Assembly (NCBI GenBank): GCA_964187785.1
Contig: OZ076409.1
Span: 4,528,001-4,592,000, forward strand
Direction of reading: 5' to 3'
Length of the DNA stretch: 64,000 nt
Source: Amphiscolops sp. MND2022
Lineage: Eukaryota
A model generated the notes under the pieces. It ran no database searches. It had not been told where the DNA came from and saw only the letters and a list, made by a program, of their open reading frames with translations. This document shows, one piece after another, positions 9,701 through 57,466 of the stretch (the first letter of the stretch is position 1; each line of letters opens with the position of its first letter). Position numbers and translations under genes: made by a program.

Positions 9701-12700
9701 TTGTTGCTCCAAGGGGTCCCCATCAATTTTTTTGATATTTTGCAACAGAATGGGTGTTCAAAGAATCCCAAATGGTCGCCCCTTTTTGCACTTGACGAAG
9801 TCAATGTGCATTGCAGTCCAGCTAAGTGGGTTTTTTCCACTATAGTCAACTTCATAATGAGCGCCTTTTAGAAAAAAGCCAAAACCCCAGAGAGATTCGA
9901 ACCTGCAGCCTCCCGATTGCACGGCATAAGTGTTGACCACTGTGCCATAGGGAGGTTATTGAACAAAGTTGAACTGTTGAATATATACGCATGCGATTAA
10001 AATAATATATATACGCATATTAAAATAATCGATGTCTTCGTCATGTGTTGCGAAGCACCGCTTCGCCTCTGTGTACCTTTTTCGGCACTATGCGACTTAC
10101 CGGAGACTTCAAAAAATCCTCAATTTTTAGTTTTTTGAGAGCTTTTGTTGTCTCCAGTTGTAGAAAGAGTGGTTTTCGAGTCTTATTGAGCCTTAGATAT
10201 GGCGCCCACTTGGGCCGTTCCCGGCTTGTTCGACTTGAAATGTCCATTTTTCAGTCAAAGTCTCCCGAGGTCAGCGAATGACCCTGGGGGTCGACAACAC
10301 TGGCGGTCAACAGAAGAAGGACATGGAAATTCCATGGAAAGGCGGTCTCCCAGGCCAAGGTCACGACCTGACCTCCCCCACTCCTCGGACATGCCAGATG
10401 GCACTGCTTTTTCCAGGGAGGACATCCATCGAAGGTCCAGACTTTTGACATCGCTAATTTTTTTGCTAATCGCTAAACCGCTTATTTCAAAATCTCTGTT
10501 TCGCTGAAAAACTTTCTTCAAACTATAAATTGTTTGACTTCAAGTATGTTTTAAAATTAAATGACAACTTAATTCAGATTTTATAAGGAAAAAGATTAAG
10601 AATTTCTCGTACTGTGTAGGTTTTACAAGGGTTAAAATAAAAAATTTTGGAGATTCATTTCGAAACTGCGCCTATTTTCCGAAGAAATTTTGAATTTGGA
10701 CAATCTATCAGTTGCCGCTAATTTGAATCGCTGATTAACGGTGTCAAAACTGCAAAGGTCCCTCTCTGAGAAGCGCACTGGGGGAAGGGTGAGGGATGCG
10801 AATGAACTGGCATTTTACAGGGAGAAGATAAAGCCAATGAAAGATGCCGGTGAGTGAAAATAATAATTACTGTATTTCGTCTAATAGAAGCCGCCCATGA
10901 ATACAGGCCGCCCCGTTTAGACGCCGCATTACGGCTGAAAGTTTTATCCTAAAAGTCATAGTTTACCGTCTTTCTTCGAATATAGGCCGCGAAATCAATA
11001 CGGAAAAAAATGTACAAGCCGGGGCCTGTATTTGAAGAAATACGGTATCATTTTTGAAAGTCATTGCTATTCGATGAAAAAAATGTTGGTGAATACATAT
11101 CATTTATATTCACCAGTTAACGGAATTGACTTCCAAAGAGAAATATGCCCGCTTAACGGAAGCCTGTGATATGTAATTGATGAAAATAAGAATTTTTACT
11201 TTTTTGAGGTGTCAAAACTTTGATCAAGGTAGATACTCTCACTTTTGACCTATGTACAATGAGCCTTTGCCTTTTCTAGAATGAATTTAATTTATTAAGA
11301 AAACTGCTTAAATAACTTAGTTCAAAAGTTAATTAATAAACTAAATTTAACCATGCAGCTCTGGGTGACGCAGAACCATCGTCCATGCGTCGCGCAGGGT
11401 CTTGTGACCAGATTCTTGACGCCGTAAGTAGTCGCGGTGGCCCCTTCGCGGTGGGGGCGACAACAGGCGACGATTCCTATTGGCTGCCGAAGCGCAAACG
11501 AGACGCCATGGTTCTGCCCGAGTCGGCGGCCGACACGTTGCTGCTGTTCAATAATACTAGTAGTCGTCATAATATCAGTAGTAATAATAGTAGAAACAAC
11601 AACACCCTCGGCTACAGCAGCCGGGCACGTAGTAGACGGGGGGCAGTATTTGATGACGTCATTCCGTGGGCACCCATCACTCCTGCGGGGGGTACCAGGA
11701 GAAACCAGCATCAACCGCAACCGGGATACTACAGTATGTAGAGCAACGATACGATATTAAACACCTCCCACTTCGATCCACTTTCATTCCAGTGATGATC
11801 ATTTTTCGAATGAATTACAACACCTAAATAAACTCCCTTCTAAGCTACTCTGCATTTGACGATGGGAAGTAAACTTTTGCGAACATTTCGCAATTTTTGT
11901 TTTTTTTTTGAGGTTTTCTGCTAAGAAAAACCGTTTTGCGAGTTTCAACAGTGACCTCTTTGGTAATTCGTTGGTCCTGTGGGAGTGATGAGCGTTTTCT
12001 CAATAATTGTGCAAAATACCTACGGTTTTTTGGGCGCTGTGTGACTTTTTCTGAAATTATTTTATTTGGTCAAAGGGTACCCACATCTTTTTTGAAGATA
12101 TTTCGGCTTGAAAAAAAAAGGTTTTGCAAACTTGAAGGGTCTTTTTTTGATTTTTTGGCACAATGAGACTTTTTAGAAAGAGAAAACTTCAATTTTTTAA
12201 AAAAAATTACAGGGTTTCTTTTATCAGTTGTCCTATTAACGTAGAAAGTTTGTCTTGCATAAAATCGGAGGAGTGAAAACGTTTCTTATATCCAAATGTT
12301 TCTTTTATCCGTGTTTCTTTTATCCGACTTCGACTGTATAAAGAAAAACGAAATTTTTTAAATCGAACTATGGAGTCACTACCTGAGCTCTGATTTTAGT
12401 ATTTTGTTTTTTTTTTCATTTGAAAAGCTCCTACCTCAGAAAGAGTACCGGACTTCACGAAATGTACCGGACTTGATTTTGTTAGGAAAGGTTTCTGGAA
12501 ATATCAGATGTACGCAGTATTCACTTCTAATTTGTAGAAGACTTAATACTCGTACCTTTGGAATTTTGAGGAATTGAAAATACAGGAGCCGGGTAATAAT
12601 TTGATGAGAAAGACATGGTTGATTAAAACTCCCATTTCTACACTTAGTCAAGATCTAAAACAAGAAAAATTAACAGAATTTACAGGCAAACAGAATTTTT

Positions 12701-15700
12701 TTTATTTTGATCATGATTTTTTTGGTGTTCTTTGCCTGTAAATCTGTCGTTTTTTGTTTCAGACCTTGATAATTTCAACGAAATGAGAGTTTTAATGAGC
12801 CACCTATTATTTATTCTTAAAATCATATCTTGATGATTTTTATAGATTGATATATAAATTTTTATAGATTCAGAATGATCATCACTGTTTTACTCCGCTG
12901 TCATGCATTGTTTTCTAAAACTGAAAATATAAATCAGCAAAAGGTTTCGATCAAAAATTTTGAAGTTTTTTTGCTACTTTGATTTCCATTACTATTGTAG
13001 CTTTCTGATCGATTTTTGATAATTTATTCTTGAACGCTTGAAAAATTTCAAACTCAAAATTTTTCAAGTCAATACTTTTTGCATGTGATTGTGAAAGTTG
13101 ATTAATTGGATTAGTGAAGATTTGTTGAGTTGCATGTCATCATTAGTTTTCATTTCTCGCTAGTCTGATGTCACAGCCAGTTGAACACAATCCATGAGTC
13201 TACTTCAACTGGCCGACTGATCAACTGAACGAAAGCGCAACTGACCGACTGATTGAATGATGAAATTGAATTTGATTGGTTAATGGAAATACGAGACAGT
13301 TTCGGTAATTTCATCATCTTGTCGGAGAATTTGATTGGTTAATGGAAATACGAGACGGTTTCGGAAATTTCATAATCTTGTCGGAAAATAAACTACGTTC
13401 GAAAAACGCGTCGAAAAATTCCATATCAGCGATTATTTCAGGTTGTTATTTGAAGTGGTTAGCATATTTGTTGTATGGCTCGGTCGCTTCGCTCCCTTCG
13501 CCAAGTAGCAACATTGAGGCATGGCCGTATGGCACGTCGCTCCGCTTCGCTTCGCTCCTGCATTTAGGGCACTAGGAGTATGTGAACATATCTGACTACG
13601 TTATCGTAATTTTCTATTCACGCATTCGGCTAGTTGCACATTCTTCCAATTGAACAGTCGGCCAATTGCACGGTACCCACAATCCATGGTTTGTTGTCAT
13701 AATGACGTCATTGCGTTGTTTCATGGGTGGCGGGACAGTTGACTAGAAATATTTCTGCGTATTTACTAATATTTAGAAAAAGGGGGACTGTTCAATTCGT
13801 CGAACATTCAACTCGTCGAACATTCAATTCGTCGAACACGTATTAATTTAGCAAGCATGGTATGACTTAATGGAATGAATTGATTTCGGCCAATCAAATT
13901 CGAGCATTCAAAATTACGATAACGTAGTCAGCTATGTTCACATACTCCTAGTGTCCTAAATGCAGGAGCGAAGCGAAGCGGAGCGACGTGCCATATGGCC
14001 ATGCCTCAATGTTGCTACTTGGCGAAGGGAGCGAAGCGACCGAGCCATACAACAAATATGTTATTCGCCACAAAATATAACCAAATGAAAATAATCGCTG
14101 GTATGGAATTCTTTCGACGCATTGAATAGCTTTTCATTTTTCGACGATTTGAATGTTCGACGAATTGAAGTTGCACCAAGAAAAAGATAGAAAGCGAGCT
14201 ACTATTGACTTGATTTTGGCTATATTCAAAGCAGTGAATGCAAAATGTCATCATCATCTACTACTGATTGTATTCTTTGGTATACAGCTAACGAAGCCTA
14301 TCCTCAAAGATAGCGATGCTTCCAATGAGACTTACTGAGTTTCTTGCAAATTATAAAATTGATTTTTGAGAATGTGTTCAGACGCAAAGATTTGTTGATG
14401 ACGATTTTTCCCTGAAAATGAATGTGAAAAATAATTGAATAGATGTTTTTGCATTCTTTTGAAATTTTTGAAGTTGCAGAAATATTTCCTATATTTCAGT
14501 GAATAGGCTTCTGTCATGTATGCTATATTGTGTTCACATGGAGGGTTCTCTTACTATTATATGGACTGGACTTTTTATTAGATTTTCTCTTCTAGAGCAT
14601 GAAATATTCGATAGCCTGTTCTATATTTTAGTTGCTCTAGCCGGCAAAAATTCTGGCGGTGTTGCTGTGCACAGTCGAATTATGTAGTATCGAAAAATGT
14701 GCCAAGTTATCTAGGATCGAATCGTGACTTGATTTTATGTAGGATCGAAAGAGGTGAAAATTGCATTTATAATTTGTCATTGCTATAGTGCCCTGTGACT
14801 TCGATCCTAAATATTTCGACCAGAAAATTTCAGTTGCAATTTTCGATTCTAAATATTTCGACTCAGGAGAGGCAACACATTCTTGCAAATAGTAGCCAAA
14901 GATGTTGACTACAATAGCTCTACAGAAATACTTCAATAGCAGATAGTCCACCATACGATCATCGATAATAGTGTAACGAGCAAACACATACGTAACGGGT
15001 ATTCAAATGAATAACGCCTTCTTGTTGGCTGTTAATCGAACCGGCAAGATCTTACTATTTACAACCTTTAAATTGGGGAGCGGGACAAAACAGCCGATTT
15101 TAAACGGGACAAAACAGCCGATTTTCAAAATAGGACAAAACCGCCGATTGGTAAAAAATCGGCGATTTTGTCAATGCGTAAGATTAGCAGTCAATACATT
15201 TATTATTATAAAGTAGTCAGCTATGTTCACATACCCCTAGTGTCCTAAATACAGGAGCGAAGCGAAGCGGAGCGACGTGCCATATGTCCATGCCTCAATG
15301 TTGCTACTTGGCGAAGGGAGCGAAGCGACCGAGCCATACACAAATATGAACCTCTTCAAATAAATCAAGTTTCATGCATATTGGCTGTAACAGCACTCAT
15401 TTTGTTCCGTTTTGAAAATCGGCTGTTTTGTCTCGTTTTTTGTCCCGCATCCTTTAAATTGATTTAAATAGAGTTGATATTGGAGTTTTCTCATATTTTT
15501 CAGAAATACCTGATCGGAAATATCACGAACTTCAACTTGTTGACGCGTTTTCAATTTTTCTCAAAATTTGTCTGCTTAATTTCCTTCAAATAATTATGAT
15601 ACTTTTAATTTTTCAACATGTTCGGAATAATAACGATAAATTCTAAAGTATGAAAAGTTTGGATCTCACTCAAAAAACTTCTAATGAAATTTGTGATTTA

Positions 15701-27700: not shown

Positions 27701-30700
27701 GGAAAAGATCGCAATGTTTTTAATATTTCTGCTTTAGCAGGAATGTTATTGTAACCTCAAAGTTGGTCCTTTTTTTTCAGTCGTCAAATTTCGTCCTACT
27801 GAATAATTCAGATATTTTGTTCGGCAGTGAGTGTAAGCGTGGGAAAGCTGCCGACAACAATTCAATTCTAGTGCGATAGAACGAGCGAGTGGTAATTATC
27901 CATTCGTATGCTGACGTCATTGAGATGAAGCGAATGAGTGTTAATTATTCGTTCGTTGAGAGCTTCGCCTGCATTCAAATGCGAATGCGAAACTTCGTCT
28001 ACGCTTAGTTATATTTTCTTTAGTCCGAGAAGAATTAAAGGCGGTGTAAACTTGTACAGTGATTAATTGTGCTCTAAGTAATGATTAAACAGGAGTGTAT
28101 TGGTATTCCAGATATGATTCTTTTATTAATGATTTTTTGTTTTAAAAAAATAAAGATTAAAGCAGAAATAGTACTGAGCCCCGGAGGGGCCTATTTTTTG
28201 AATCTCAAATCATATTGTGGGCGATACAGAAATGGCTCATTCGGCTATTCCGCGTCTTATGCATCTTTCGTGTTTTCCTTTGCGAATGGATGGAGAAATT
28301 CCCATTAAAACAATTCGAATTTTGAAAGCAGATGAATAGGAAAAGCTTTTTAGAATACACGATGCAATGAAGTTTTCGAAGCGAACTTTCCTGTTTCTTA
28401 TAACATGCAAACGAACATGTCTTAGAGCTTGCGCTAAAGTTCAGAGTTGAAACGGTAAATATGGTAAATTCAAACTTTCTGGTTTTTATTCCGAATAAAT
28501 TCTGAATAATTCTAACTTTTTAAATATACAAAACACCATATATTTAACAACCCTGCTTATACGACGCGTTTTTTAGCTGTCATTCCATACTTAATGTACG
28601 GCTGTACACGCTTGCTCAAAAGCTCAATGTTTCCGGCTAATCGGTCCAATCGGCTGAAAACTTGTATCCGATTGACCTTTTGACCGCGTTGACCTCTAAA
28701 ATGTCTTGAGTGTTCTACTCCAGATTCAAGGTCAAAGTTTTTCAGGACCAATAAAAAGAATCAGCAAGACAACAAAGATGCCAATAGTGGTAACATTGTC
28801 AACAATTCCAGCGGCAATAGTCGATCTTCCAGCGCCCCCATGCGGCCTCAAAGTGCAATGCCTCCTTCTGCGCCCTCTACTGGATCAGCCAATAGGAAGA
28901 CGAGCTACCATCAGCCAATCCACGGCTTCCAAAGCGAGGAACCTGCCGCCATATTTGTCAGGTTAATAAAAAAACTTGAATTAACTAGGTTGACTAAACA
29001 CAGAGATGACCATAGCTTGAAATTCTATTATAGCAATGCTATATTAAACGTTATGTTATTAAAATGGCAGCATTTATTATAGCGGCTATAATATGAACAT
29101 ATATGGAATTTTTTATAATAGAATTCTATAATTGCCGCTATTATTGACCAATCATACCTCTCGATGAATAGAAGAATGAGAATTTTGCCTCGAAATTTGA
29201 AAACTAGACTCATCGTTGAATGTTATAATAATTAGTTCATGGTCTTCATTGTTTTGTTATTTTTTTTCGAAAAAAATTCAACTGTTTTCTCCTTAGCTGA
29301 CTACCCTAGATGGGCTCAAGGATTGAAGCTATAGTCATACTGCTGGATCTCCTGTATCTCTCGAAAATACTGACACAAAATATCAACTATGATTTCTTTG
29401 ACAAATTTAACTATTCAATGAACAACGAATATACTTATCACACGCGACTAGAACCCTATCATTTCTTGCAAGAAAAGAGGCCTCAACCCGCTACTGCAGA
29501 ACAAAATTTTTGGTTCCGAGCAAAACGTCTAGCCATGCAATTACCATCTTCAATTGACATTCGTGAATATGATACTCTAAAACCGAAGCTACTCTACTGG
29601 ATGTGGCGTGATTTTCATGACACCTTTGATGAGCTGAACACCTGCACTTGGAGAATGAAATGCGACTGTGTGACAAAAAATTACAGACTATTAAACAACT
29701 GAAACCCTGACTTTTCTACACGAGACTCTTATGTACTTCTGTAACAGACTACTGCTTCCAAAACAGAGTTGGACTTTGATAACTTCTAACTGAAGTTTCA
29801 AATTTACACTGAAATTTGTATAATAATACATCATGCTGTGTGCCACTTGATATATCTGGAAGGGGTTAAACCCCGTGTGGTGAAAACCACAGAATTCATA
29901 TTAATAATAATAATAATACCATTGACAAAAATTGGATCTATAATAGAATTCTTTTTATTTTTAGTTAATAGCAAAAGCTATAATAATTTCTATAATCAAT
30001 GATTGTAGGGTCATCTCTGAGTAAACATCATTCTAACTCAGAAGAGAAAATAACAAAACTTTTGCCCTATATGCAGAAGCGGATATCAATATCAATCAAT
30101 CATTCAGATGTAGTAATAATATGTATTTGAATTCATCTGATATGTGACCAAAGACAACCAAACAAAAGATTCAAGATTTAATAATCAAATACCAGAAAAG
30201 ACCTCCAATGGCCAGAGCCCGCTCAACGGAGGTCTAGTACAACTGAATCATTACAAAAACTTGAATGTCCTTTTTTAGTTTTTCTAATTTCAGGCTAAGA
30301 ATAACAGATAGAAATTTAATCAAAGTTATGTTTCAACAATTGACGTGAAAAATAGTTCGTTCAGCAGTTTGTGTTAGACCATTCTCACCCTTGAATACAA
30401 GGGACAAACTTGATGTTTTGATTTCATTTCATTCAAGAGATTTGTCAAAGCTTTGTATATAGGTTTCAGGTATTTTTCCGGGTATCTGACCCGCTATTAA
30501 TCCAGACAAAAATGTACCCGCTGGTAAGGGGCCAACAACCAATATTTTGAAGCATGAAAGAGTAACAAGACCGGAACGTCCAAGGTTGGCGCCATGTTTA
30601 AGGCACAAAAATATTCAAGGAACGGTTGGAAAGATTTGGAAAAAATTTTTTTTGAAAGTCGCTCAATGCTGAAAAACTCAAAAATTTCAAAGAAATGAAA

Positions 30701-33700
30701 GGGGTACCCTTTGATAGAATTCGAAAATGCAAAGAATGATTTCCATAAACAAGTTTGACATGGCTGAACATTTATTTGCATTTGTTTTCTGATTCTCTAG
30801 ACATGCATCGATTGACACGGGTGTCCACAGAGGTTTGCTTACTGTTGCATTGATGAGGATAAATAATTGTACATGTTCCCAATTCCGTGCCTTTTCTCCC
30901 AATTTCTTCCTTCTCCTAAAATTTCCTTATATGGCTAAAATTCATCCGGGCCCAAATTCACCAAATTATATATGTACGCAATCACCTGTGCGAATTGCAT
31001 AGACTGTCGGAATGAAGGTTACCTACTGTGTCGTTGCTTGTACCTCCTTTAGAGCAAAAACTCCTTTTTAGTTTGAATTCGTTTTGACATGAATCAGAAT
31101 TAGAATAGAGTTTTCCCTTAACTTGGCAATGCCGTTAGGCTTGAATTTTAGGTTTTTTTTCCGTTAAACTCTTCGAGGAAATCAAGAAATTCCATTATCT
31201 GAGACTGATTTCATCTGATACAAAATAGTTCGTTTAAAAGCCCAATGAATGAGTACGTCAAAGATCGTTTTCATTGTTTTTGACCTTCGAATCGAGACTA
31301 ATTTAATTCGAATCCTATCTTTATTTGCAAGAAGCTTTTCGCTTTTTTGTGCTTATCAAACTATCATTCAAGAGAAAAACAATAAAACTACAATCCCACA
31401 ATTGTACAACAATACATGTTACTCGTGTATATTTCAGCTTCTGTTAAGTAAAGCACTCAATCGCTTTGACTGAATGCCATGTGCTATTCCTGCATCCTTT
31501 AGCTTTGAATCAAAGGAAGGGTCCCAGCTTAAATTTTTTTTGATTCTAAGAAGAGACGAAATTTGGTTCATCATTTTGGATTCAAATCACCTTCGCTGTG
31601 TTTCTAACAGAGTCTTGACTCCGCTGATAAGCGAATTAGCGGCCGCCTGTATTTTTCAGCGATTTTATTAGCGATTCAAACTGCAAAGAAGTCTTGACTA
31701 GTTGATAATGTGTCGAAACGTGTTGTCTCGCTTCCGAAAAGTTTTCAAATGAGGCTAATAGCCAAAACTTTTCGGGAGCGAGACAACACGTTTCGACACA
31801 TTATCAACTAGTCAAGTTGTTACTCTGTTTCAATCAGAGTGGCTATTTGGTTATTTTTGTCGGCTACCAGACAAAAGCGCCCAAAATACACACTCAAAAG
31901 CGCCCCAGTGACGAGCGACCCAATCAAAGATTACAAGGGATATGCTGAATCCGTTGCATCAACTTTAAGTTCCTCGCTCTAATTAAATATTCGTCAGTTT
32001 TTCCTTTTAAAGCAACTCATTGGCTAATTGTTTCATTAGGAAATTGATGTAATTCCCTCAGTAATGCCGAAATTAGAAACTCAAGTTGTTTTCAATTCAA
32101 ATTGTGGTTGGCCGTGGGAACATGAAACCTGGCAATGCCATTGGAATATTATTTCATTTGAGCAATCTCAATTTGGCTTAATCAGAGGTTGGGAAGTTAG
32201 CTCGAAATTAGCCAGGCGTTTTGCCTTGGGCGCTTATGGCTGTATAAATGGGCTCCTTTGACGGGTGCTTTTGTCTTGTCACCAGGGTTTTGACATCGCT
32301 AATTTCGCTAAACCACTAATTTCAATTCGCTGAAAAAATTTTCCGTCAAACTGCTAGACGTTTGACTTCAAGTATGTTTCAAAATCAAATGATAACTTGC
32401 TTTAGTTTTTGCACGAAAAAGGAAAGAATTGAGTTTTTATTGTGTGTGGGTTTTACAAAGGTAAGTTTCGGAATTTTTCGAAATTCATTTTGAAACTCCA
32501 TGTATGCTCGAGGAAATTTTGAATTTGAATCGCTAATGAAATCGCTGAAAAATTCCTGCGCGGCCGCTGAACCGCTAATTAGTGGTGTCAAAACGCTGCT
32601 TGTCATTGTCGCCAATCCCTAATCAAACCATTGATCTCCTACATCATCTCCCTCCATCTAAGTTTGTTTGTTTTTGCTTTTCAGCCATGATAAGATGAGG
32701 GAAGCGCCCCCTGTCGCGCACAGAATGGGGGGTGGGGTTGTCACCCTGAATACCAACAACATGCACATAAACCCAACGGGAGTCACCGTCGCCCATCGAC
32801 ACTCTCCCCACAGAACTAATGCCTCGCCCTCTCACAGTCGAAACTCTTACCACTCCCCCATGAGTTCTGCCTCTCCCACTGACGATATACACAACCAGTG
32901 ATGATCATTTTTTTTATTTCTGCGACAGCAGGAATATTATTGAAATCTAACAATTTGACTTTTTTCACTTCAATTTTTGTCGTGATCTCGAGTACTTACT
33001 GAAAAGATAAGTGACTATAAGCGTGAGAATTAAATTTCTCAAGCTGCCGACGACATTCCAATTCTCGTGCGATGGAACGAGCGAGTGGTAATTATCCATT
33101 CGTATGCTGACGTCATTGAGATGAAGCGAGCGAATGTTCGTAATTGTGCTTTCGTTGCTCCGAGTTATTGAGATGAAGCGAATGAGTGTTAATTATTCGT
33201 TCGCCGAGAGCTTCGCCTGCACTCAATTGCGAATGCGAAACTTTATCTACACTTAGTAGTTTTCTTTTCTTTATAGTCCGAGAAAAATCAAAGGCGGTGT
33301 AAACTGGTAGTGATTAATTGTGCGCTATATAAATGATTAAGAAATGCTTCCATTATTGGAGATGAAAGCCTAAAAGCAGAAATAATACTGTGCACCGAAG
33401 GGGCCTATTTTCTCACTTTTTGATCCAGTACTTATAAGCTGGAACACAGCATTCCGATAAAAAACATCACCCGGGCCAAATTCCCCTTTATTTTCTCGAT
33501 TTTTTTCGGCACTGTGCGACTTTGATCTCTTTTCATCAAAGGCCCTCTGTTTCAGTAAATTTATTGCAGAAGGCTTTCAGTTGAGTCAGTTCTCCTGCTG
33601 ACGATAAACATAACCAGTGATGATCGTTTTGTCAATTTAGTGGGCACAGTATTGTTTTTTTAATGCGAAAATAATGAAAGCTCTGCGCGTACTGAATCCG

Positions 33701-36700
33701 AGAGAAAAGATTTTTTGCCTTTGTTACAAGGAGGGCGTGTCAGTGAAAAAGTAGTTTGGGCGTCGGTACGTAACATACGCAGAGTTGGAACCGGGTCATG
33801 ATTTTCTACCCGAAGCCCGGCCCGAGCCCGTTTCAAAAATCCTAACACGACCCGATATTTTTGAACATTTTCAATACCCGACGAAAATGCACGAAAACGA
33901 ATTTGATACCCGAAACTAAATTGTAAATGATAATCAGCTATAAGCATAATGAGAATTCAAAAATCCCAGTTTTTACAAAATTCAAAAACTCGACATCAAA
34001 CAGTTTTTGGCAGACATCTGGGCTCTACGAGCTGTGCGAATAAGACAAGCTTGATTAAAATTTTGTTAACTTTGAGCAACTAAAAGGAATCAATTGCGAA
34101 AATTATAGAGTCCAGGTTAATGTATAAATTTTGAATTTATTTTCCGAATTGTTATACCCGGCCCGGAAAAATTTAAGCTCGAAAAAGCCCGGTTATAAGC
34201 CCGCCCGGCAACATTTGATGACGTGCTTGGTTCCAACTCTGAATATACGTAATATATGTTTGAATGATCACCACTGTTTGTACCAGCCAGCTCAGCTACC
34301 ATTACCACCCCGGGGGGTACAACTCTGCCCGGTCGAGTGTGAGAAGAGACTCAAACTCCTCGAGCATTGGATCCGCTGCCCAGGTAGTGTAATAAACTGA
34401 ACATTTCCAAGACACAGAAATCAGTGTGTGATCGATTTAATAATTAGGAGTGGGAAAAAAATTTCGACAACTTATGCAATCGTACCTTTTTTCTCTCGAC
34501 CTTTCAATGAAAATTTCAAATTTCCTTGAAAACTGTACAAGCGTTTTTAATACAATTTCGCATAGCCATTCTACACCCAAAGATGTTCCTGTATGCGTAA
34601 TGGCATCAAAATCCTATGACTAAAATCTGAGAAACATAGCCAAAGTTAGTGCAAAATGGTCGTTTTTGACTTTTTTCAATTTTCTCAGAAACTGTGCACA
34701 CGATTCGAAAGAATTTTTTACCGCATTCTACATCATATTAGCGTCCTATGTGTGCAATGACATCAAAATCGTATGACTGGGATTTGAGAAACAGCCAAAC
34801 TTTGTCCAAAATGACTATAAAGTGCGTAATTTGTTTTCCAACTTTTCAATCCGTTTCCAACTTTCTTACTGCACATGCGGCTCTGGTTTAATTAATAGGG
34901 CCAAAATGTTTTTCAGGACATAAACATCTCTTGAGAGTAGCATTTAACTCCCATTTCTGACAGCCGGAAAAGCAGGTTAATCCTGTAGGCGAAGCCTGGG
35001 ATATAATCGCTCCAAAATTGTACCTGGACTTCAGATAGTGAAGTTTAAAAAATTGTTCCATGGAAACTAAAGAAATTAAAACTGAATTCGAAGTTTTTTC
35101 TTGCTATGTGTAGTGAAAACATGCGATTAACAAATGAACTAAACAAGCAATAAAAATGAATTTCTTGTTCTCAAATATCAACATTGTAGTATTACAATTC
35201 TTGTGAATTACTCACACCTTTAGTCTGAAATCGCCCTCTCGATGGTGTTGAACTGAAAATGGGAACGTGCGGGAATGATCCTTAGGCGAGGTTCAATGGA
35301 GGGAACACAGAGCTAAGTTTTTTCACCTCGAAATCTCAGTCAAAGCTTGCAAGAATCTTGAAAGATCCATACTTTTCTTGCAAAAATCTTGCCATTTCAA
35401 TCCTGCTTAGAAGAATCATTGCAAGAATAATGCATTGACTTTTTTCAAGAATTGTCTTTTTTTAACCTAGGGAACCAAAACTAAATATATGTTGATTGTA
35501 AATGTGCAAATTCAGTTTATAACACCACCCCTTCCAGGTATGCCAGTCTCATTCGCCCCTCGCTGAAACTGGCTTTCACCCTCCAGTATCTTCCCTGTCC
35601 ACAGAAAGTGGTGGTCGTGCCAGCAACGGCAGCAACGATGTCTCATCTGTGGCCGCCGCTGCAGCCTATTTCGACAGAGTCTATACCTCCAATCTCAACA
35701 ACCAGCCAACCCCCCATTATCAGCCCCGCAAACCTAGGTATGCCTGCTTATTCACCACGAAAAATCGCTTTTCTCTTTCGTCCTATGCAGTTTCAACCGT
35801 TGCCATTTCAACCGCTCGCAATTCCGACCTTAACTAATTTTTTTGGCTATTTCGTCTTAATTCGGTTGAGCTATTATTTCATCATAATAGTTGGTATTGA
35901 ATAAAACAGCCTTAATTATTGGTAATTATTCATGAAAAAGCCAAAATGTGTCAAAAATGGTGTAAAAAGTAAGCACATTTAGATTTAGAAATGTATGAAA
36001 ATGAAAACTACTTCAAATAATTTTATAACTAATAGGATCCATTAGCCAGAATTAGTATAAGTCGAAATTGCGGACGGTTGAAAATGCAACAGGTTGAAAT
36101 TGTGAGTGGTTGTAATGGCAGCGGTTGAAATTGCATAGGTTGAAAGTGTATAGGACGAAATGTCATGTAACTCTTTTGAAAGCGAGAATATTTTCTGGTT
36201 ACATGGTATTTCGTCCTTTGCCATTTCAACCGTTGACAATTTCAACCTATTGCATTTCCAACCTTCCGCAATTTCGATCTATTCAAATTTTGGCTAATTA
36301 CTCCTAATTCGGATAAGTTATTATTTCAGTACAATAGCTAGTAATATATCAAAGTGCTTTAAATATCGGTAATTATTCATGAAAAAGTCAAAATGTATCG
36401 AAACTAGCGTGAAAATTAACACGTTTGAAGATTAGGACATTGGATTGTCCAAATTCAAATATTCCTCAGAGTGTACATGGAGTTTCATAATGAAATTCAA
36501 AAATTCTATCTCTTACTTTTGTAAAACTCACACAGTATGAAAAACTATAGTCTTCTTGCAAAAATTGAATAAAGGCATGCTTGAATTTTTATATACTGTG
36601 GAATCCGCCTAATTCGTATCGCTAGGGACCGAATAACATTGTACGAATAATGAGAAATTTGAACAGATTTATTCGAATTAAAATTTAAGCGTGTGCCATT

Positions 36701-48813: not shown

Positions 48814-51800
48814 ATGTCTGCCCCCCAATCATCGACCACCACGATCGACTATGAGACAGTGTGCACCATCAAAGATGACGTTCTGTCCAAGGTTGTTATG
48901 TTTAAAGCAAGCTGTTCTAAACCAGCTTGAAAAAAACTGTTTAAAACACAAACACTTTTGAAAAACACATTGTTTTTCATATTTTTTAAAGCAAAGGGCC
49001 CACCCTTTTCGGCATGTTATGTTTTTTGTCATGTTGTGTTTTTTCATTTGTTTTATAACAGCACAAAAATCTGTTAGCGGTGGAGATAGCTTGCAAACTG
49101 TGTTTTCTGTACCGAGAACCAACTCGATAATTTGATCTTACAATACTGTGATTCTTCCTGAAATTTGAAATGAAAAATTTATTTGGAAATTTGTTTTTTT
49201 TGATATAGCAAAAATCAGATGAAAAAACAATAAACAAAAAAGACTTTTCGAAAAAAAACATGTTTAATTGTATAAAATGAAAACAATTGTATAAAAATAT
49301 AGCAACCCTGGTTCTGTCCAGATGGGCGACTACCGGCCGGAGATTGGCATCATTCTGGGCTCTGGGTTGGGGGGTCTGGGTGAACACATTGAGAAGCCAG
49401 TGTTCATAGACTACAAGGACATCAAGGGGTTCCCCAGTTCCACCGTTGTCGGCCATAAAGGTTCCTTTCTCCCGTGCAAAGTTATTGAAATGAATGTTCA
49501 TTAAAAAAAGAAAAAAATGGAAAAAATTGGCTCTTCTGGACGCAAGGGTTCAGTAGCTCAACATTTTCATATTTGATGGGGGATCGCACTGATTGTTCCT
49601 TTTTGACGAGAAAAGATCAATATTTCAGTGTATTGAAGCGATAAAGCGACGGGGTTTCCCCAAAAAAAGCGCATGAGCGCTTTTTGAATTGATATTTTGT
49701 ATCAATTTGTTTTCAAAATATCACTTTTTATTAGGCCAAGTAGTCTGTGAACTTCTTTTATTGTCGTCCTAAGAAATCTAAAAGTGGTTTTAATTATATT
49801 TTTTTCAGACTTTGTTGATTTCACGTTTCGTTTAAAGTACACTTCACGAAATTGACTGACAATGTTTTTTGAATGAGCGTATTAGCGGCCTAAGCGGAAA
49901 GTGCCGACGAAATAAGCGCAAGCGCTCAAAAGTGCAAACTTCGTAAGCGATCAATACACTGCAATATTTCCACAGTGTTGTCTTTGTTTCCGGTTTTGAA
50001 AAAGCAGCGGTTTCCAGCACTGATTTATTTATTGTATAGCGCGGCTTGAGTATTTGGATCTGTCGAAAATACCTCGCTTTGCAATGGGGCGCTTTAGCCT
50101 TCTTATAAAGAAACGCGCGTTTCTTTATAAATAAGTTACAAAAACTTCGGCAAATGGAGGCATGTGTCAAGGGTGTGCGTTCATTTCACCCCACATTGTA
50201 ATCATACAAAAGCGTCTCGCCGTAATTAACGACTAAAATTTATTGCCTACTGTCTAAATTGTCAGGTTCTGACCATACGTGATTAATAAAACTGAATACG
50301 TAAATTTTTGCTGAAGATTCGCAGCATCCATAGTTGAAGATTTGATTACGCAACGAGAGCTCCTTTCTGAACGATTGACAGAAACGCTGATCTTTTTCAG
50401 CGTCGTGTTCAGAAATTTTACAATTCCGATTAGTGAAACTTTTGGGTTCCGTTTTCGTAGTTCACATAGCAAGAGCATCGTTTGATTATCTAATTATTAT
50501 TTCTGCTTTAGCAGGAATATTATTGAAATCTCAAAATGTCTACTTTTTTTCAGTACAATTCTTGGCACGATACTGAATAATTCAGATATTTTGTTCGGCA
50601 GTGACTGTAAGCGTGAGAATTAAATTTCTCAAGCTGCCGACCAAAATTCAATTCTCGTGCGATGGAACGAGCGAGTGGTAATTATGCATTCGTAAGCTGA
50701 CGTCATTGAGATGAAGCGAGCGAACGTTCGTAATTGTGCTTTCGTTGCGACGAGTTATTGAGATGAAGCGAATGAGTGTTAATTATACTTTCGCGGAGAG
50801 CTTCGCCTGCATTCAAATATATATTTGCTTTAGTCCGAGATTTACTACTATTAGTACTAAAAGACTGAATTGATTCTAGTCAGAAATTGATTCTAGAAAA
50901 AAATACTTGATGATATTTACATGTACAGATTTTTTAACAACAGTTTTAAAGGCGGTATAAACTAGTACAGTGCTTAATTGTGCGCCAAATAATGATTTAA
51001 CAGGAGTGTATTGGTATTCCAGATATGATTCTATTATTAATGAAAGATTAAAGCAGAAATAATAGTGTGCCCCGGAGGGGCCTATTTTTGGTAATTAGGT
51101 TCAAGACGTTTTTCTTTTAGCGCTAAGATCGAAAATGTGTGACTAGTCATTAATCTGAGGCAAACATTTGATAATTTCAATGTGGTGTGAAATGAACGGG
51201 GGGCGGGGGGGGGGGGGTTGAAATGAACGGGGAAGTGAAATTATAGTGAACCGTCTTAAGAACTAAAACATGGAAATACTGTTTTAAAAGATACAATTCT
51301 AGATTATGATCAATAGAGGTGCACCGAACTGGAAAATTTTCGTCCGGCCGGACAACCGGATGACAAAATTGATCCGGATATCGCCGGACCATACTTTATC
51401 CTCAACTATAAGCGATGAAAGACTGTTTTCAGAATTGGGCAATGAGTATGACGAAAAGCTAAGTAAACATTTGCTCCAAAGTGGGGGAAAATATTCCACT
51501 TTTTCTTCAACATCATAATGACTGCTGTAATCGAGAAATGAATATTTAAAGTGGCAATAAATGCGTGAGTGTCGAATTCCGGGTTTTAATCTGAAATATG
51601 CGATCATTTGTATAGATATATTTGTCCGGCCGGATTCCGTCAAAAGTCCGACCGAGCGGGATATTTTTTCGAACCCCGGCGGGATATCGGATCAGACTTG
51701 ATGTCCGGATATCGGACCGGACTTGATGTCCGGATATCGGACCGGACTTGATATCCAGATATCGGACCGGACTTATGTCCGGATATCGGACCGGACTTGA

Positions 51801-54800
51801 TGTCCGGTACGCCTCTAATGACCGGTACACAAGAAATCATCATAGCGGGCAGTTTTTTGGGTTTAGGCAGATTCGTATGTGGACTTCTATCTGGCAAGCA
51901 AGTGCTGTGTATGCAGGGAAGGTTCCATTGTTACGAAGGCTATCCCCCCTCGCTAGTGACTCTGCCCATCCGAGTGATGTCTCTGCTGGGAGTAAAGTCG
52001 CTCCTGGTCACCAACGCCTCGGGGGGTCTCAATGACTCATTCAACGTGGGTGACCTCATGATCATCAGAGACCACATCAACTTGGCTGGTTAGTGAGAAA
52101 CAAGACAGGAACGTCTTAGGTCGGCGCTATATCCAAGGCTCAAAAAGCGCAAAGTTTTTAAAATATGCCCAGGACGTATTTATGAAAAGCTCAGAAAGCA
52201 GTTTCGAGACACCCAAAGGGTGCTTTTCATGCTCGATAAGACTCGGAAACCACCTTTTGCCCAACTGGAAACAAAAAAAAACTTTTTTGAAAAAATCTGT
52301 TTTTCTTTCGAAAAATGTCGCATAGTGCCGAAAAAGTAAAAGGGGGGACCCTTTCGAATTTATCAACATACATTCTGTTGCAAAATATTTTTCAAAATGA
52401 AGAGGGACCATTTGATGCAATCAAAAAATTCCGAGAAAAAGTCTCACAGTTGAAAAAACTGATAGCGCCGCATAAAGTTTTTGGAATATCAGATCTCTTG
52501 ACTGGAAGTACAAAGATTATCTAGTGGTAGGATCAGACTTGAAGAACAGTCATCCTAGAGTATCATGGTTGAAAAAATATTCTTACAAGAGTTCATCAGG
52601 AGACATTCGGAAAGAGCGGATGCAGAAGAATTGTTCCTGGGCAATATTTGGCAATAGACCCCAAAGGCAGCATTGGAAAATAGCAATGGTGTCTTTTGAA
52701 CAAATCGCTGTTTGAAGAGTATTCTATAATCGTCGGAAATTATATGGTTTCATGGGAAGCACCCGAGGGATTGTCAGATTTATGACAGCCCTCCCTGGTG
52801 AACTATAGCACTGATGGATGACTCTACGATTGCTTGTTGGCGGCGTGTCACTCTGCAGCCTCTGAGACAGAGGACGGTATAATCATAATTTCTGACCCCA
52901 TTCTAGGCGAAATGCGAAGCTAAGTATCAAAACAAGCCGGGAACAGCATAATGACGAACAGCAATTTTGTAGAACTTTGTAGAACTATTTGTCAGTTCGT
53001 TTGGATTTTAACAAGCCGGGAACGGCCCAAGTTGGCGGCCATATCTAAGGCTCAAAAACAGCAAAAGGACTTCAAAGTGTCAAAGTATTCTCTTCTACGG
53101 TACCGGAAAAACCCAAAAGTTGAACCGAATTGGCGCACCAGAGGGGACACTTTGAAATTTTTCATCCATTCTGTCGCAAATCATCAAAAAAAATTGAAGG
53201 AGGGGCACTTTTGGTGAAAAAAAAATTGAAAAAAAGTCTCACAATGCCGAAAAAACTGAAAGGGGGACCCTTTGGGATTTTTCAACATCCGTTCTGTCGG
53301 AAAACTCCAAAAAAATTGAAGGGGGACCTTTTTGGGGAAAATTTTTTTTTTCGAAAAAAAAAGTTCGAGCCGAAAATACTCTAAGGGTCCCTTTGAGTTT
53401 CTTGGATGTAAAAATACTACTTCGCAAGCTGTTAAAGTATGTCAAATTTGCTAAGTAAGAATTGTAAGATTTTAAGATTGTAAGAGTTGTAAGAAAAGTG
53501 GACCGATCAGTGTGAGGATTGTAGTCTGAAGAAAAAAAGGTCACTGCTATAGTCGGGCATTTTTCCTTAAAAGGATAAAGCGCCGACTAAAAAAGACTTA
53601 CTCGTATAGTCGCGTTTCACTTCATGATGCGCCGACTAACTAGTGAGGTGAAGTAAGCTAAACTATAGTTTGAGCATGCCCCATCCTCGCTGAGTTGGCG
53701 TTCGCTTGAGGCTCAAAAAGCGCAAAGATCCTTTTTTTAAAAAATTTTCGTGTCAATAAAAAGATTTTTTAGATGAAAACCAAAAACAATAAAAAAGGGG
53801 TCCTTTGATTAAATGAAAAAAAAATTCGCGGAAAGTCGCACTATGTCGAAAAACCACGAAGCTCGATTGTTGAAACAGTGTCTCAAATTTTGGCTCTCTG
53901 TGCAAAAAGAGATTTTAAAAAAAGTCTCCTTTTGCAATAGCTTGCGAAGGTTCGCCGAGACCGAGAGCTGCTACTTTCGAAAGTGAAACGGTGTTTCGAC
54001 ACGCGAATTTACACTGATTTATCGTCGATTTGCGTTTTTAAATTTGAATTGCCCCATATTAACGGAGATTTCGTAAATCAATTGAAATTATAATGATAAT
54101 TTAAATTAATTTCATATCCAATTTTTGAATGTTTATCACTGCCCACAACTGAATTACAACCGAACAGTTTGGATTCAACACTTTGAAACAAAACATCAGT
54201 TTTGCAGCTTTTTCGTTGCACAGCCGATTTCCATGCTCATCCAGGCAAACTGTTGGAACCGAGCAAATTATCAAAGCCTGAAATTTCTTTGTCACTTATA
54301 ACAGCTGTTTTTAACAAGGAATGAAAAAAAAACATGTTTTGAACATACAATGAAAAAAATGTTTTTAGGAGTATAGAGGTGTTAGGTATACAACGGGGAT
54401 AAGGACGATCCGAATCCTTGATTCATTGTCAGTTTTACGACTCCTTAAAATTTTAAATTTTAAAAATTTAAGGTGTTGATTGTATGAAATTTTCTGTCAT
54501 GATGATTATAAGTTTTCTAATATTTCCTCTCCCAGACGCTCTTCATGTGTTTTCCGGTCTTTCCGCCTTTCTTTTCTGATCTGATAAAATGAGAGTTTTC
54601 TGATCCTCTTTCGTCACTGTCAATCTTTTACACCTTTTTTAGTCGGCGCATTTTAGTCGAAAATATGCCCGACTATTACAGTGGGTAGCTTTTTTTAGAC
54701 ACGAAAGGTCCACTTTTTTGTTCAGTTCATTTGTTCAACAACTTGGGGGAGGTTCAAAACACTCGAAATCTCAGAACCTTGTGGAAAACAAAAAAGAAAC

Positions 54801-57466
54801 AAACGGACGTCCTGGAAAACATAATAAGGGTCCAATGTTAGACATTTCCAATTTTTTTTCGGCACTATGCGACTTTTTCCGAAATATTTTTTTGTCTCCA
54901 AAGGGTCCCCCTTCAATTTTTTAAAAAATATTTTGCAGCAAACTGAAGTTTCAAAAAGCCCAAAGGGTCTCCATTTTTACAATTTTAAAAACTTTGCGCT
55001 TTTTAAGCCTTAGATATAGCGCCGACTTTAGACGTTCCCGTCTTGTTTGACTGTTCTCTTTGTCGGCTTGTACTTTCACTTTCAACTGGAAATCTCTTCA
55101 GCTGGCATTTGTGGATATTATCGCGGCACAGTCTGCGCAGAGACTATGTAAACAAAAGCTTCGCTTCGCGCTGAGTCTCGTTGAAGCCGTGATGAGATTT
55201 TCTCAGCCTTAGCAGGACATTAACTTTTATGGGAGGTCGTAAAATTGAAAAAAAAATTCAAGGATTCTGTGGAGGATTCGGATCGTCCTTACCCCTGTTG
55301 TATACCTACCAAATCCCTATACTACTGTTTTTTATTTTGTTTTTTTTTCACTACATCCTTATGTCTTCTGTTATTGGTAATAATTTTAGTGATTAGTATG
55401 TGATTAGTGTTTTTCTTCCTTTCAGATTCTAATTGAAATGCGCCGACAGAAGGATGACATTTGGCGAAATTTCAATGAAGTTGATGCAAATTGTTTATAT
55501 TCACCAAAAAAATTGACAGCATTATATGTTTTCATTTGACGAGTCTGCAGTTATTTTGCTATTCTTTGGAAAACACAGTGAAAAATAAAAACATTTTTTT
55601 GGAAGAAAGCTATAAAACAAACAAGCCGGGAACGGCCCAAGTCGGCGCCATATCGAAGGCTCAAAAAGACTCGAAAACGAAAACCACTTTTTCTACAACT
55701 GGAGACAACAAAATCTCTCAAAAAGCTAAAAATCGAGAAAAAAATTTCCGAATTTTTTTCGAAATTTTTTTGAAGTTTCCGGTAAGTCGCATAGTGCCGA
55801 AAAATGTAAAAGGGGGACGCTTTGGGATTTTTTGAACATCCATTCTGTTGCAAAATATCAAAAATTGATGGAAGGAACAGTAAAAAAGAATCGGAAAAAA
55901 ATCAGTCTCAGTGCCGAAAAAAGGAGGAAAGTCTCAGTGTCGAAAAAAGTGGACCCTTCTGCTTTGGAATGGCTTTTTATCTCATGTTAGAGGCTTTGGA
56001 TGCGTTGAAAATGAAGTAGTAAGTACATATGGTAAAAGTTGGTAAATGTGCATTAATGCACAAGTAAGAGTCGGGATTTTCTTCGAAAACGCCGACTAAA
56101 AACGTTTAAATCACAACCTTGTCACTTGTTGATGGATGTTTGGAATTGTATGTTTCAGGCATGGTGGGTTGTCTGAACCCCTTGATCGGACACAACGAAC
56201 CCAGGTACGGGGGCGAGAGGTTTATCCCCACAAGCAAGGCCTATGACAAGGAGTACTCGGACCTGTTTCGCCGGTGTGCAGAGAAACACAACTTCTCCCA
56301 ATTCGTGAGGGAGGGTGTGTATATATTCCTGTCTGGACCCTGTTTCGAAAGCATCGCAGAAGCCAAGATGCTCAAGACGATGGGCGCAGATGCTGTTGGC
56401 ATGTCTACTGTTCCAGAGGTAGTACAACGGAAGTGTTGAATATTAAAATGCCAAAAGTCAACGAGACGGAAACGTCTAAAGTCAGCGCCATATCTAACGC
56501 TCAAAAAGCGCTGATTTGAAATATGCGAAAGACGTTTTCATGAAAAACTCATGTTTCGCACCTCCGCCTCCTCCTTACTAAAACGCAATATAGTTCGGAT
56601 ATAACGTCTAAAGTTCGGATATAGCGCTTAACCCTGGATATTACGAGGGGGACTTCAATGAAATCGAAGGGGGGCCTTTGAAGACAAAAAAAATTCAAAA
56701 AAGTCTCACAGCGCCGAAAAAATTGAAGGAGGGACCCTTTACTCTCATCCGGTTTTGTATGTTAGGATCTTTTCTGTTAATCCCCCCCCCCCCCCCACCA
56801 ATTTAATTCCCCCCCCAGTTAAGCGGTCAAGTGAAATTATCACTGAATCAATAGTAACAACCAATCAAATTGCAGTATTTTATAACTCTAACTGCAACTG
56901 AAACTCATCGCTGATAGTGGTGGGGAATTAAAATTTATGCGCTTACTGTGGGGGGGAATTAACAGAAAAGATCCGTATGTTACGTTTAAAAAGTAAAAAC
57001 TGAAAGGGGGAGTCACCCTTTTTTGGAGTTTTGCGACAGAATGGATGTTGAAAAATCCCAAAGGGTGTCCTCCCTTTCAGTTTTTTCGGCATTGTGAGAC
57101 TTTTTTTCATTTTTTTTTCATTCACCAATACTTTAACTTTGTCATTTTGTTATTTTTGAGCCTTAGATATGGCGCCGACTTCAGACGGTCCCGGCTTGTT
57201 CCTACTTCTCAGTGTAGTGTCGAGGCTAACGAAATTGTTTTTGAAATCCTGGTTGAAACATGTTTATCTTTTTGACACCCATTTAGGTCATCGTTGCGCT
57301 TCACTGTGGAATGAGAGTGCTCGGCGTGTCTCTCGTCACCAATGCGGTCATTACGTCATATGACGTCACTCAAACAGCCAATCACGAAGAGGTTCTTGAG
57401 ACGGGTCGCCAACGCGCTGAAGACATGGTTAAGCTCGTCAAGGAATTCATATCTTCTTTGCAATAG
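48814..57466 (+). CDS. PNP: Purine nucleoside phosphorylase (trimeric, inosine/guanosine type), 5 exons, 292 aa
   Basis: Exons 48814-48891, 49322-49460, 51867-52088, 56159-56418 and 57287-57466 join in frame (879 nt including TAG). Motifs: [66 protein letters not shown] (Asn, not the Asp of MTAP), ANHEEVL. Confidence 0.95.
48888..49310. mobile_element. hAT-like MITE forming PNP intron 1
   Basis: TIRs CAAGGTTGTTATGTTT / AAATATAGCAACCCTG (13/16); perfect 8-bp TSD GTTCTGTC. Confidence 0.85.
50498..51089 (+). mobile_element. Helentron-like family C (representative)
   Basis: subTIRs ATTTCTGCTTT / AAAGCAGAAAT, then hairpin GCCCCGGAGGGGC and a T-run. Other copies at about 7670-8115, 8288-8838, 20745-21527, 27726-28199 and 32915-33410. 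Confidence 0.7.
51314..51817. mobile_element. hAT-like MITE with subterminal 24-bp tandem repeats
   Basis: TIRs TAGAGGTGCACCG / CGGTACGCCTCTA; about five copies of GATATCGGACCGGACTTGATGTCC(G) at about 51683-51807. Confidence 0.7.
52474..52705 (+). pseudogene. SF3B3: decayed SF3B3 (SAP130) N-terminal fragment inside PNP intron 3
   Basis: 52594-52668 translates [25 protein letters not shown]. Upstream, across frameshifts, are [19 protein letters not shown] and VILEY. Contains stops and deletions. Confidence 0.85.
54635..55047 (+). mobile_element. Helentron-like family A copy
   Basis: TTAGTCGGCGC ... GCGCCGACTTTAGACGTTCCCGTCTTGTT. Further copies at about 9420-10230, 22437-22875, 24730-25145, 53010-53592, 55620-56102 and 62340-62866. 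Confidence 0.7.

Follow-up and report, generated by a model that had tools for sequence, protein, structure and literature searches.

A hAT transposon very probably lies between two coding exons of the par-3 gene in the acoel Amphiscolops sp., where it is likely to have inserted into a single ancestral exon and is likely to be spliced out as an intron. The site was analysed within a stretch of 64,000 nucleotides (nt), here called the window (G000:C1:4528001-4592000), of a genome of 1.07 Gb, and positions given without a contig are window positions. Judged by the ends of the element and the reading frames around it, the element likely works as an introner of a known type that has rarely been reported in animals, and the par-3 case is most likely part of a family-level process of intron gain in this genome. 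Published screens have turned up few introners in animals, for which the source of new introns is still an open question.

The predicted intron in par-3

The gene is identified as acoel par-3 because its PDZ exons match acoel Par-3 (among named proteins, the Par-3-like ones of Convolutriloba macropyga, at 78%, and Symsagittifera roscoffensis, at 74%, match a PDZ exon best) and because the N-terminal domain PF12053 is found about 52 kb upstream on the same strand. A model of five exons (28837-28961, 32685-32897, 34287-34383, 35538-35737, and 38938 onward) is free of stops and has intron phases 2, 2, 0, and 2; its second to fourth exons, all on the forward strand, are called B, C, and D below. 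Exon B (32685-32897) has 71 codons and phase 2 at both ends, and its last two nucleotides, CA, are the first two of a left terminal inverted repeat (TIR, 32896-32909, forward strand) that agrees at 14/14 positions with a word found throughout the genome, CAGTGATGATCAT. This TIR contains both the predicted donor, CA/GT, and an in-frame TGA (32899-32901). There are nine GTs in exon B, and the one inside the left TIR is the only one in phase 2, the phase required by the next acceptor. The right TIR (34263-34276, 13/14, forward strand) lies 10–23 nt before the acceptor end, where it may occupy the zone of the expected branch point. It is followed by an 8-mer, presumably the right copy of a target site duplication (TSD), and then by the acceptor AG at 34285-34286 (34277-34286 together), and this AG, ending 10 nt past the TIR (hereafter +10), brings the par-3 reading frame back in exon C (34287-34383, phase 2 to phase 0). 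The presumed left TSD copy is the exonic 8-mer at 32888-32895. The predicted intron, 32898-34286 on the forward strand, is 1389 nt long, is consistent in frame with the gene model, and falls where the outgroup exon is continuous. A preliminary description of this DNA had placed the TIRs, the 8-mers, the AG, and the stop codon as given here, and had stated that the 8-mers at 32888-32895 and 34277-34284 agree at 3/8 positions; all of this was confirmed, the 3/8 match being at chance level. The second copy of the exon end with its TIR (33591-33638) and the TIRs on the next intron, both described below, are additions to it.

Outgroups favour a gain of the intron. The ENA proteins in the collection searched are unspliced open reading frame (ORF) calls, as is shown by two entries that exactly match read-through ORFs of this genome, each running from an exon through the element to the first stop. 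Entry P0032, from the S. roscoffensis cluster, is one ORF of 146 residues from the start of exon B to the end of exon D: it starts with the Ser-His of exon B and ends, like exon D, 18 residues before the conserved motif of the last exon. As it is a single ORF, both the predicted intron and the next par-3 intron are, judged by position, absent in S. roscoffensis. Similarly, the gene for mitochondrial ribosomal protein S26 (MRP-S26), which is split by another member of the family (L165), is unbroken across that site in two outgroup acoels (C. macropyga cluster, P0038; S. roscoffensis cluster, P0039 and P0048). MRP-S26 and par-3 are the two of 14 sites that were compared, and the intron is absent from the orthologs in both, for par-3 as judged by position. 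An empty-site allele was sought through par-3 read-through ORFs and found for 0/3 among the ENA entries.

The TIR family and its other coding sites

The word CAGTGATGATCAT has 287 exact matches in the genome compared with 6 for a control word, and its 13-mer has 417 compared with 33. From the fetched loci 70 elements could be paired, and removal of 11 that lie inside one larger repeat without a TSD left 59; these have TIRs of 13–14 bp at both ends, and the TSD copies are identical at 8/8 positions in 12 and at 7/8 in 14. DUF659 (PF04937) was found over the cut-off inside the paired element L116 (E 8e-10) and beside a TIR in L159, and the hAT dimerisation domain (PF05699) was found under the cut-off inside the paired element L153 (E 0.015) and, again, beside the TIR in L159. 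L116 (G000:C1:80794400-80798110) and L159 (G000:C2:88562400-88566920) are the candidate transposase-bearing members of this CAGTG family and should help to find its autonomous partner; no full-length intact transposase was delimited. On the evidence of 8-bp TSDs, short TIRs, and predicted transposase domains in its members, the family is assigned to hAT and is mostly non-autonomous, the TSD at the par-3 site itself matching at only 3/8. Its element appears to be a facultative intron maker, most copies being ordinary non-coding insertions. One such copy (11790-12887) lies within another par-3 intron, the donor of whose exon is at 11733; it had been proposed as a non-exonic copy for comparison, and it is indeed intronic, with a TSD of 6/8 and no AG within 30 nt of its right TIR.

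Fourteen sites fit the geometry of an element spliced from coding sequence, namely par-3 and 13 paired elements whose flanking ORFs share a frame and whose first AG is in frame. The AG is at +10 in par-3, L011, L025, L045, L091, L119, L149, and L165, at +7 in L135, L150, L186, and L207, at +16 in L103, and at +28 in L141, so the offset is not confined to +10 but is always in frame. Some of these sites were selected by their AG: L011, L025, and L045 came from a search for +10, and L186 and L207 from a search for +7 in which 30/47 matches were examined. L148 (+7, TSD 8/8), of a young subfamily, was ambiguous and did not enter the count. The predicted junctions are GT-AG at all sites, i.e., the non-GT-AG ends of introns derived from miniature inverted-repeat transposable elements (MITEs), as in Fritillaria, Amoebophrya, and euglenids, are not seen; a GC donor may be used at those +7 sites that have a TSD ending in AGG. 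Domain evidence is clearest in L165, where Pfam positions 63–98 and 126–167 of MRP-S26 are found colinear on the two flanks. One flank has Pfam support in L135, which splits a trypsin domain, in L150, which precedes a DAGK catalytic domain, and in L207, which lies within an Ig domain. No families were found on the flanks of L103, L119, L149, and L186, the Pfam scan of the flanks of par-3, L040, L041, and L045 gave a family in 0/8 pieces, and a homolog search with the upstream ORF of L045 gave 0/213 candidates. Candidate element ends such as L010, L017, L070, L095, and their kin were rejected, as the TIR words there lie inside continuous coding sequence.

Some copies have a different relation to introns or to each other. 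L005 (G000:C2:99436118, beside an exon that we take to be beta-adaptin-like) and L143 (G000:C2:44229764, in a gene identified by Pfam as Med18) were inserted near the 3' end of introns that appear to be older, with the acceptor in or just past the right TSD. In L174 (G000:C3:66102592) and L175 (G000:C3:84505553) a coding-like frame runs into a left TIR and meets an in-frame stop right after it; a search over about 23 and 28 kb, respectively, gave no partner TIR, and these solo copies are possibly introns with a decayed right TIR. A TIR-bounded unit of 174–186 nt with fixed, non-matching flanks is repeated many times as part of a larger repeat (L110, L114, L138, L140, L154, and others).

The preliminary description had expected the 10-nt spacing to be enriched among family members. 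This does not hold across the family, in which AG is at +10 in 27/417 copies compared with 22 expected from base composition (p = 0.17); what stands is an enrichment of in-frame spacing among copies embedded in exons. The family-wide test has low power because most copies lie outside exons. As only exon insertions should be filtered, an unselected sample was drawn from the first 100 listed TIR words regardless of AG, and it gave 45 paired elements. Where each flank has 60 open codons or more, the frames are compatible in 7/8 and the first AG is in frame in 6/8, compared with 12/74 background orientations (p = 0.0011); the corresponding figures for a first AG in frame are 6/10 compared with 11/70 at 50 codons or more (p = 0.005), and 8/21 compared with 7/48 at 40 or more (p = 0.034). 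L131 and L132, with long ORFs on both sides and a first AG out of frame, were counted as misses. In all, 8/45 of the unselected paired copies look intron-forming, which is far above a plausible coding fraction, and extrapolation from eight per 100 TIR words would give about 30 intron-forming copies in the genome. The family also has a target preference, AG being found at TSD positions 6–7 in 10/52 orientations, and this would predispose it to the +7 class.

Origin of the intron and alternative explanations

A simple sequence of events may have produced these introns. Insertion of a hAT element into an exon would duplicate 8 bp; the GT in the left end of the element would serve as donor, and the acceptor would be an AG of the host located 10 nt beyond the right end. 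The messenger RNA would keep the left duplicate together with the CA of the TIR and would lose the right duplicate together with the AG that follows, so that the net effect at +10 would be a 2-nt swap, AG to CA, and at +7, where the AG is inside the duplicate, the addition of one codon. Exon insertions without an in-frame AG would be purged, and such purging of frame-breaking insertions would leave the surviving exonic copies at offsets of 1 modulo 3. The interior would then decay and fill with other repeats, and the TIRs would likely persist as splice signals. That the intron was born from a TIR element, and that its frame is kept by two nucleotides gained from the TIR and two lost after the TSD, had been suggested in the preliminary description, and both suggestions gain support from the continuous outgroup exon and from the same geometry at other coding sites.

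It is improbable that the intron instead predates the element, with one or two copies landing at the borders of an intron that was already there and the TIR replacing the old donor after a local deletion, yet several observations that weigh against an exonic insertion point this way. The 3/8 match of the presumed TSD is what chance would give (P = 0.37), so that neither the TSD at this site nor the local pairing of these two TIRs is proven. The intron contains a second left TIR at 33615, and many TIRs of the family lack a partner within 3.3 kb. L141, which departs from the simple geometry, has a 26-nt pyrimidine tract and no TSD after its right TIR, and as L005 and L143 sit 8–10 nt before older acceptors, AG spacing alone is no proof of intron birth. 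On the other hand, a single exon spans the par-3 site in S. roscoffensis, exon B has no leftover phase-2 donor that an older intron could have used, and the exact +10 geometry recurs at seven other coding sites, some of them with a TSD of 6/8 or 7/8 (L045, L091). These findings favour insertion into an exon. The comparison with orthologs has its own weak points: the par-3 junction lies in a low-complexity region that could not be usefully aligned with the acoel orthologs, so that its homology is positional, and a gain at par-3 rests on one outgroup, so that the intron may instead have been lost in S. roscoffensis. Also to be set against the proposed origin are the 10/14 sites that lack domain evidence (L091 and L141 were outside the Pfam scan) and owe their coding status to open frames, the absence of a significant peak at +10 across the family (+9 and +11 have 20 copies each, p = 0.14), and the automatic frame test, which, owing to the shortness of exon C, scored par-3 among the misses.

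A further alternative, somewhat less probable still, accepts the exonic insertion and questions clean splicing: exon B might be skipped, translation might end at the TGA at 32899, or a donor at 33616 or an acceptor AG at 34295 might be the main one. Donor positions −1 and +5 weigh heavily in splicing when they are G. The par-3 TIR donor has neither, a weakness that also counts against its use as proposed, and each of six other window donors listed has one. A second in-phase donor and a second in-phase acceptor (AG at 34294-34295, in exon C) are present, and skipping of exon B would keep the frame since the exon is symmetric (phase 2-2). What speaks for regular splicing is that exon B is open for 71 codons and that the protein fits both orthologs in length only when it is included: two conserved anchors lie 228 aa apart when exon B is counted and 157 aa apart when it is left out, compared with 223 in C. 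macropyga and 235 in S. roscoffensis. The exons downstream are intact, including the conserved last-exon motif, and the frame requires the same donor word as the junction in MRP-S26, which is presumably essential. Finally, that an ordinary intron merely happens to carry the TIR words by chance is hardly credible, for although some 33/417 of the 13-mer matches are background and several fall in continuous coding sequence (L010, L017, L070, L095), inverted 14-mers (14/14 and 13/14) at both intron ends, a geometry like that of 13 other sites, and the in-frame enrichment of the family speak against it.

The age of the intron-forming copies was considered through their TSDs and interiors. The preliminary description had also supposed that the intronic TSD copy drifts toward a pyrimidine tract; this found no statistical support, with 9 purine-to-pyrimidine changes compared with 6 in reverse over 9 sites (p = 0.30), and a drift toward T (15 changes to T, 7 from T) is not significant either (p = 0.067). 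The median TSD match is 4.5 in intron-forming copies compared with 7 in others (p = 0.002), the quality of the partner TIR being equal, and similarity to sampled copies in the subterminal region is lacking in 9/12 intron-forming copies compared with 11/47 others (p = 0.0015). A full-length relative in the genome was found for L186 (one, 88% over 298 nt) and none for L150; as the case of L186 shows, a copy whose interior is unlike the others may belong to a rare subfamily and need not be very old. It is possible, at less than even odds in our judgement, that several families of hAT transposons have over a long time supplied this acoel lineage with introns, with TIRs kept by selection as splice signals after the interiors decayed. 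The share of intron-forming copies in the unselected sample, their weaker TSDs and more often unrelated interiors beside equally intact partner TIRs, and the two adjacent par-3 introns with TIRs of two families agree with this. The left TIR would then be kept as donor and the right one as branch point or for end-to-end pairing. In a predicted fold of the L150 intron the TIRs pair, at an energy that is unremarkable overall (z 0.22). Every copy was identified by an exact TIR word, which biases the set toward intact ends, and as this and rare subfamilies such as that of L186 could explain part of the pattern, retention by selection is no more than suggested. If true, there would be a class of fossil introners that screens based on similarity miss, and transposon-driven intron gain in animals would be undercounted.

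Known introners, the second family, and other features

In maize, Ac/Ds elements (hAT, 8-bp TSD) are reportedly spliced as an intron inside an exon in single mutant alleles, a finding credited to Giroux and colleagues in 1994, whose study is listed in PMC3443670. The acoel elements resemble these in that a hAT element with an 8-bp TSD acts as an intron within an exon, and differ in that there are at least 14 sites, several of which are also found in independent ENA assemblies, and a second family that does likewise. Huff and colleagues are said to have described introners in Aureococcus in 2016. As set out in the main text of Gozashti et al. (2022, PMC9860276), introners from TIR elements with TSDs carry one splice site and recruit the other from the TSD or the neighbouring exon (Fig. 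2C, 2E), some add or remove codons (Fig. 2F), and a family is recognised from at least four introns; in the acoel, frame analysis makes element ends coincide with predicted intron ends in coding genes at 14 sites. The acoel elements likewise are non-autonomous TIR elements with TSDs in which one site would be carried and the other recruited. They differ from these families, whose introns are described as similar to one another near both ends, in that 9/12 acoel introns share only the 13-nt TIR with sampled copies, and also in their host and in being known here from sequence alone. The Aureococcus family shown in the same paper (PMC9860276, Fig. 2F) has an 8-bp TSD and, like the acoel family, forms introns in coding exons with the frame preserved; it carries both splice sites and adds 12 nt, whereas the acoel acceptor would be host-derived, with a net change of 0 nt and a 2-nt swap (+10) or of +3 nt (+7). 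Around 82% of classified introners are TIR elements according to the main text of Gozashti et al. (2025, PMC12130899). In animals, introners were recorded in only two groups (PMC9860276), to which a sea urchin was later added, and a tunicate was validated (PMC12130899); acoels are not named in the main texts of either paper, and their supplementary tables may list more species. MITE-derived, lineage-specific introns with TIRs and TSDs are described for the animal Fritillaria borealis in a review (PMC11282704) and have non-canonical ends and an adapted spliceosome, unlike the predicted acoel introns, which share the TIRs and TSDs and are GT-AG and a minority. No report on introners in Acoela or on introns of the closest sequenced relative was found in a search whose coverage lacked most subscription journals. 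In this genome one hAT family accounts for at least 14 candidate gains, a second family adds to them, and a simple rule emerges: the TIR supplies the donor CA/GT, and an AG follows it at 1 modulo 3. The rule may be applied to genomes with CAGT- or TAGT-ended hAT elements.

The second family is found at the next predicted par-3 intron (34384-35537, forward strand), which precedes exon D (35538-35737). TAGTGTWATAAACTGAA is at 34385-34401 and its inverse at 35511-35527, i.e., the inverted ends are 17 bp, with an AG at +10 and a TSD match of 2/8. Since each is bounded by inverted TIRs and has an AG at +10, two neighbouring par-3 introns look transposon-born. The word is rare (20 matches compared with 15 for a control at one mismatch). 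The second family (TAGTGTTATAAACTGAA, 8-bp TSD) also interrupts other long ORFs: the L218/L225 pair (G000:C4:70494302-70495219) has perfect TIRs, a TSD of 8/8 that contains AG-GT, and the same long frame to its left and right, the TSD of L218 holding both splice sites, and in L222 and L223 the TIR end and the first flanking base make up TAG ahead of a long ORF. The 12 nt after the right TIR of the first par-3 intron (34277-34288) recur exactly after a second-family TIR in L230 (G000:C8:5304117 region), and no further site was found among the fetched loci (1.77 Mb, both strands); the shared string is possibly a coincidence or a common target preference.

Within the first intron, growth by nested insertions, as the preliminary description had proposed, is supported by three nested repeats. 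A dispersed repeat at 32908-33411, in the T-run behind the left TIR, is 69–84% identical to other copies and may be HINE/Helentron-like. The stretch 33673-33770 is part of an unrelated repeat of high copy number (501 candidates at first look), which was rejected as the interior of the element itself as its relatives lack the TIRs. A nested MITE (33780-34241) has 12-bp inverted ends and a 7/8 TSD (33772-33779 and 34242-34249) and is 81.5% identical to a copy in L127. Between these repeats, 33591-33638 (forward strand) is a second copy of the end of exon B with its left TIR (33615-33628), identical at 40/48 nt and with an in-phase cryptic donor after 33616. A selected micro-exon of 27 nt was considered for this duplicate and is unsupported, as several AGs lie upstream and its divergence is like that of the nested repeats. 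Farther upstream, 9030-9330 resembles 11745-12050: the left TIR of the 11790 element, together with about 45 nt of its flank and some 250 nt of its interior, has a copy 2.7 kb upstream, and as this parallels the duplicate at 33591-33638, left ends with their flank have been copied locally twice in par-3. A second gene follows par-3 on the forward strand, with exons at 49295-57463, and resembles what we take, from its motifs, to be a purine nucleoside phosphorylase.

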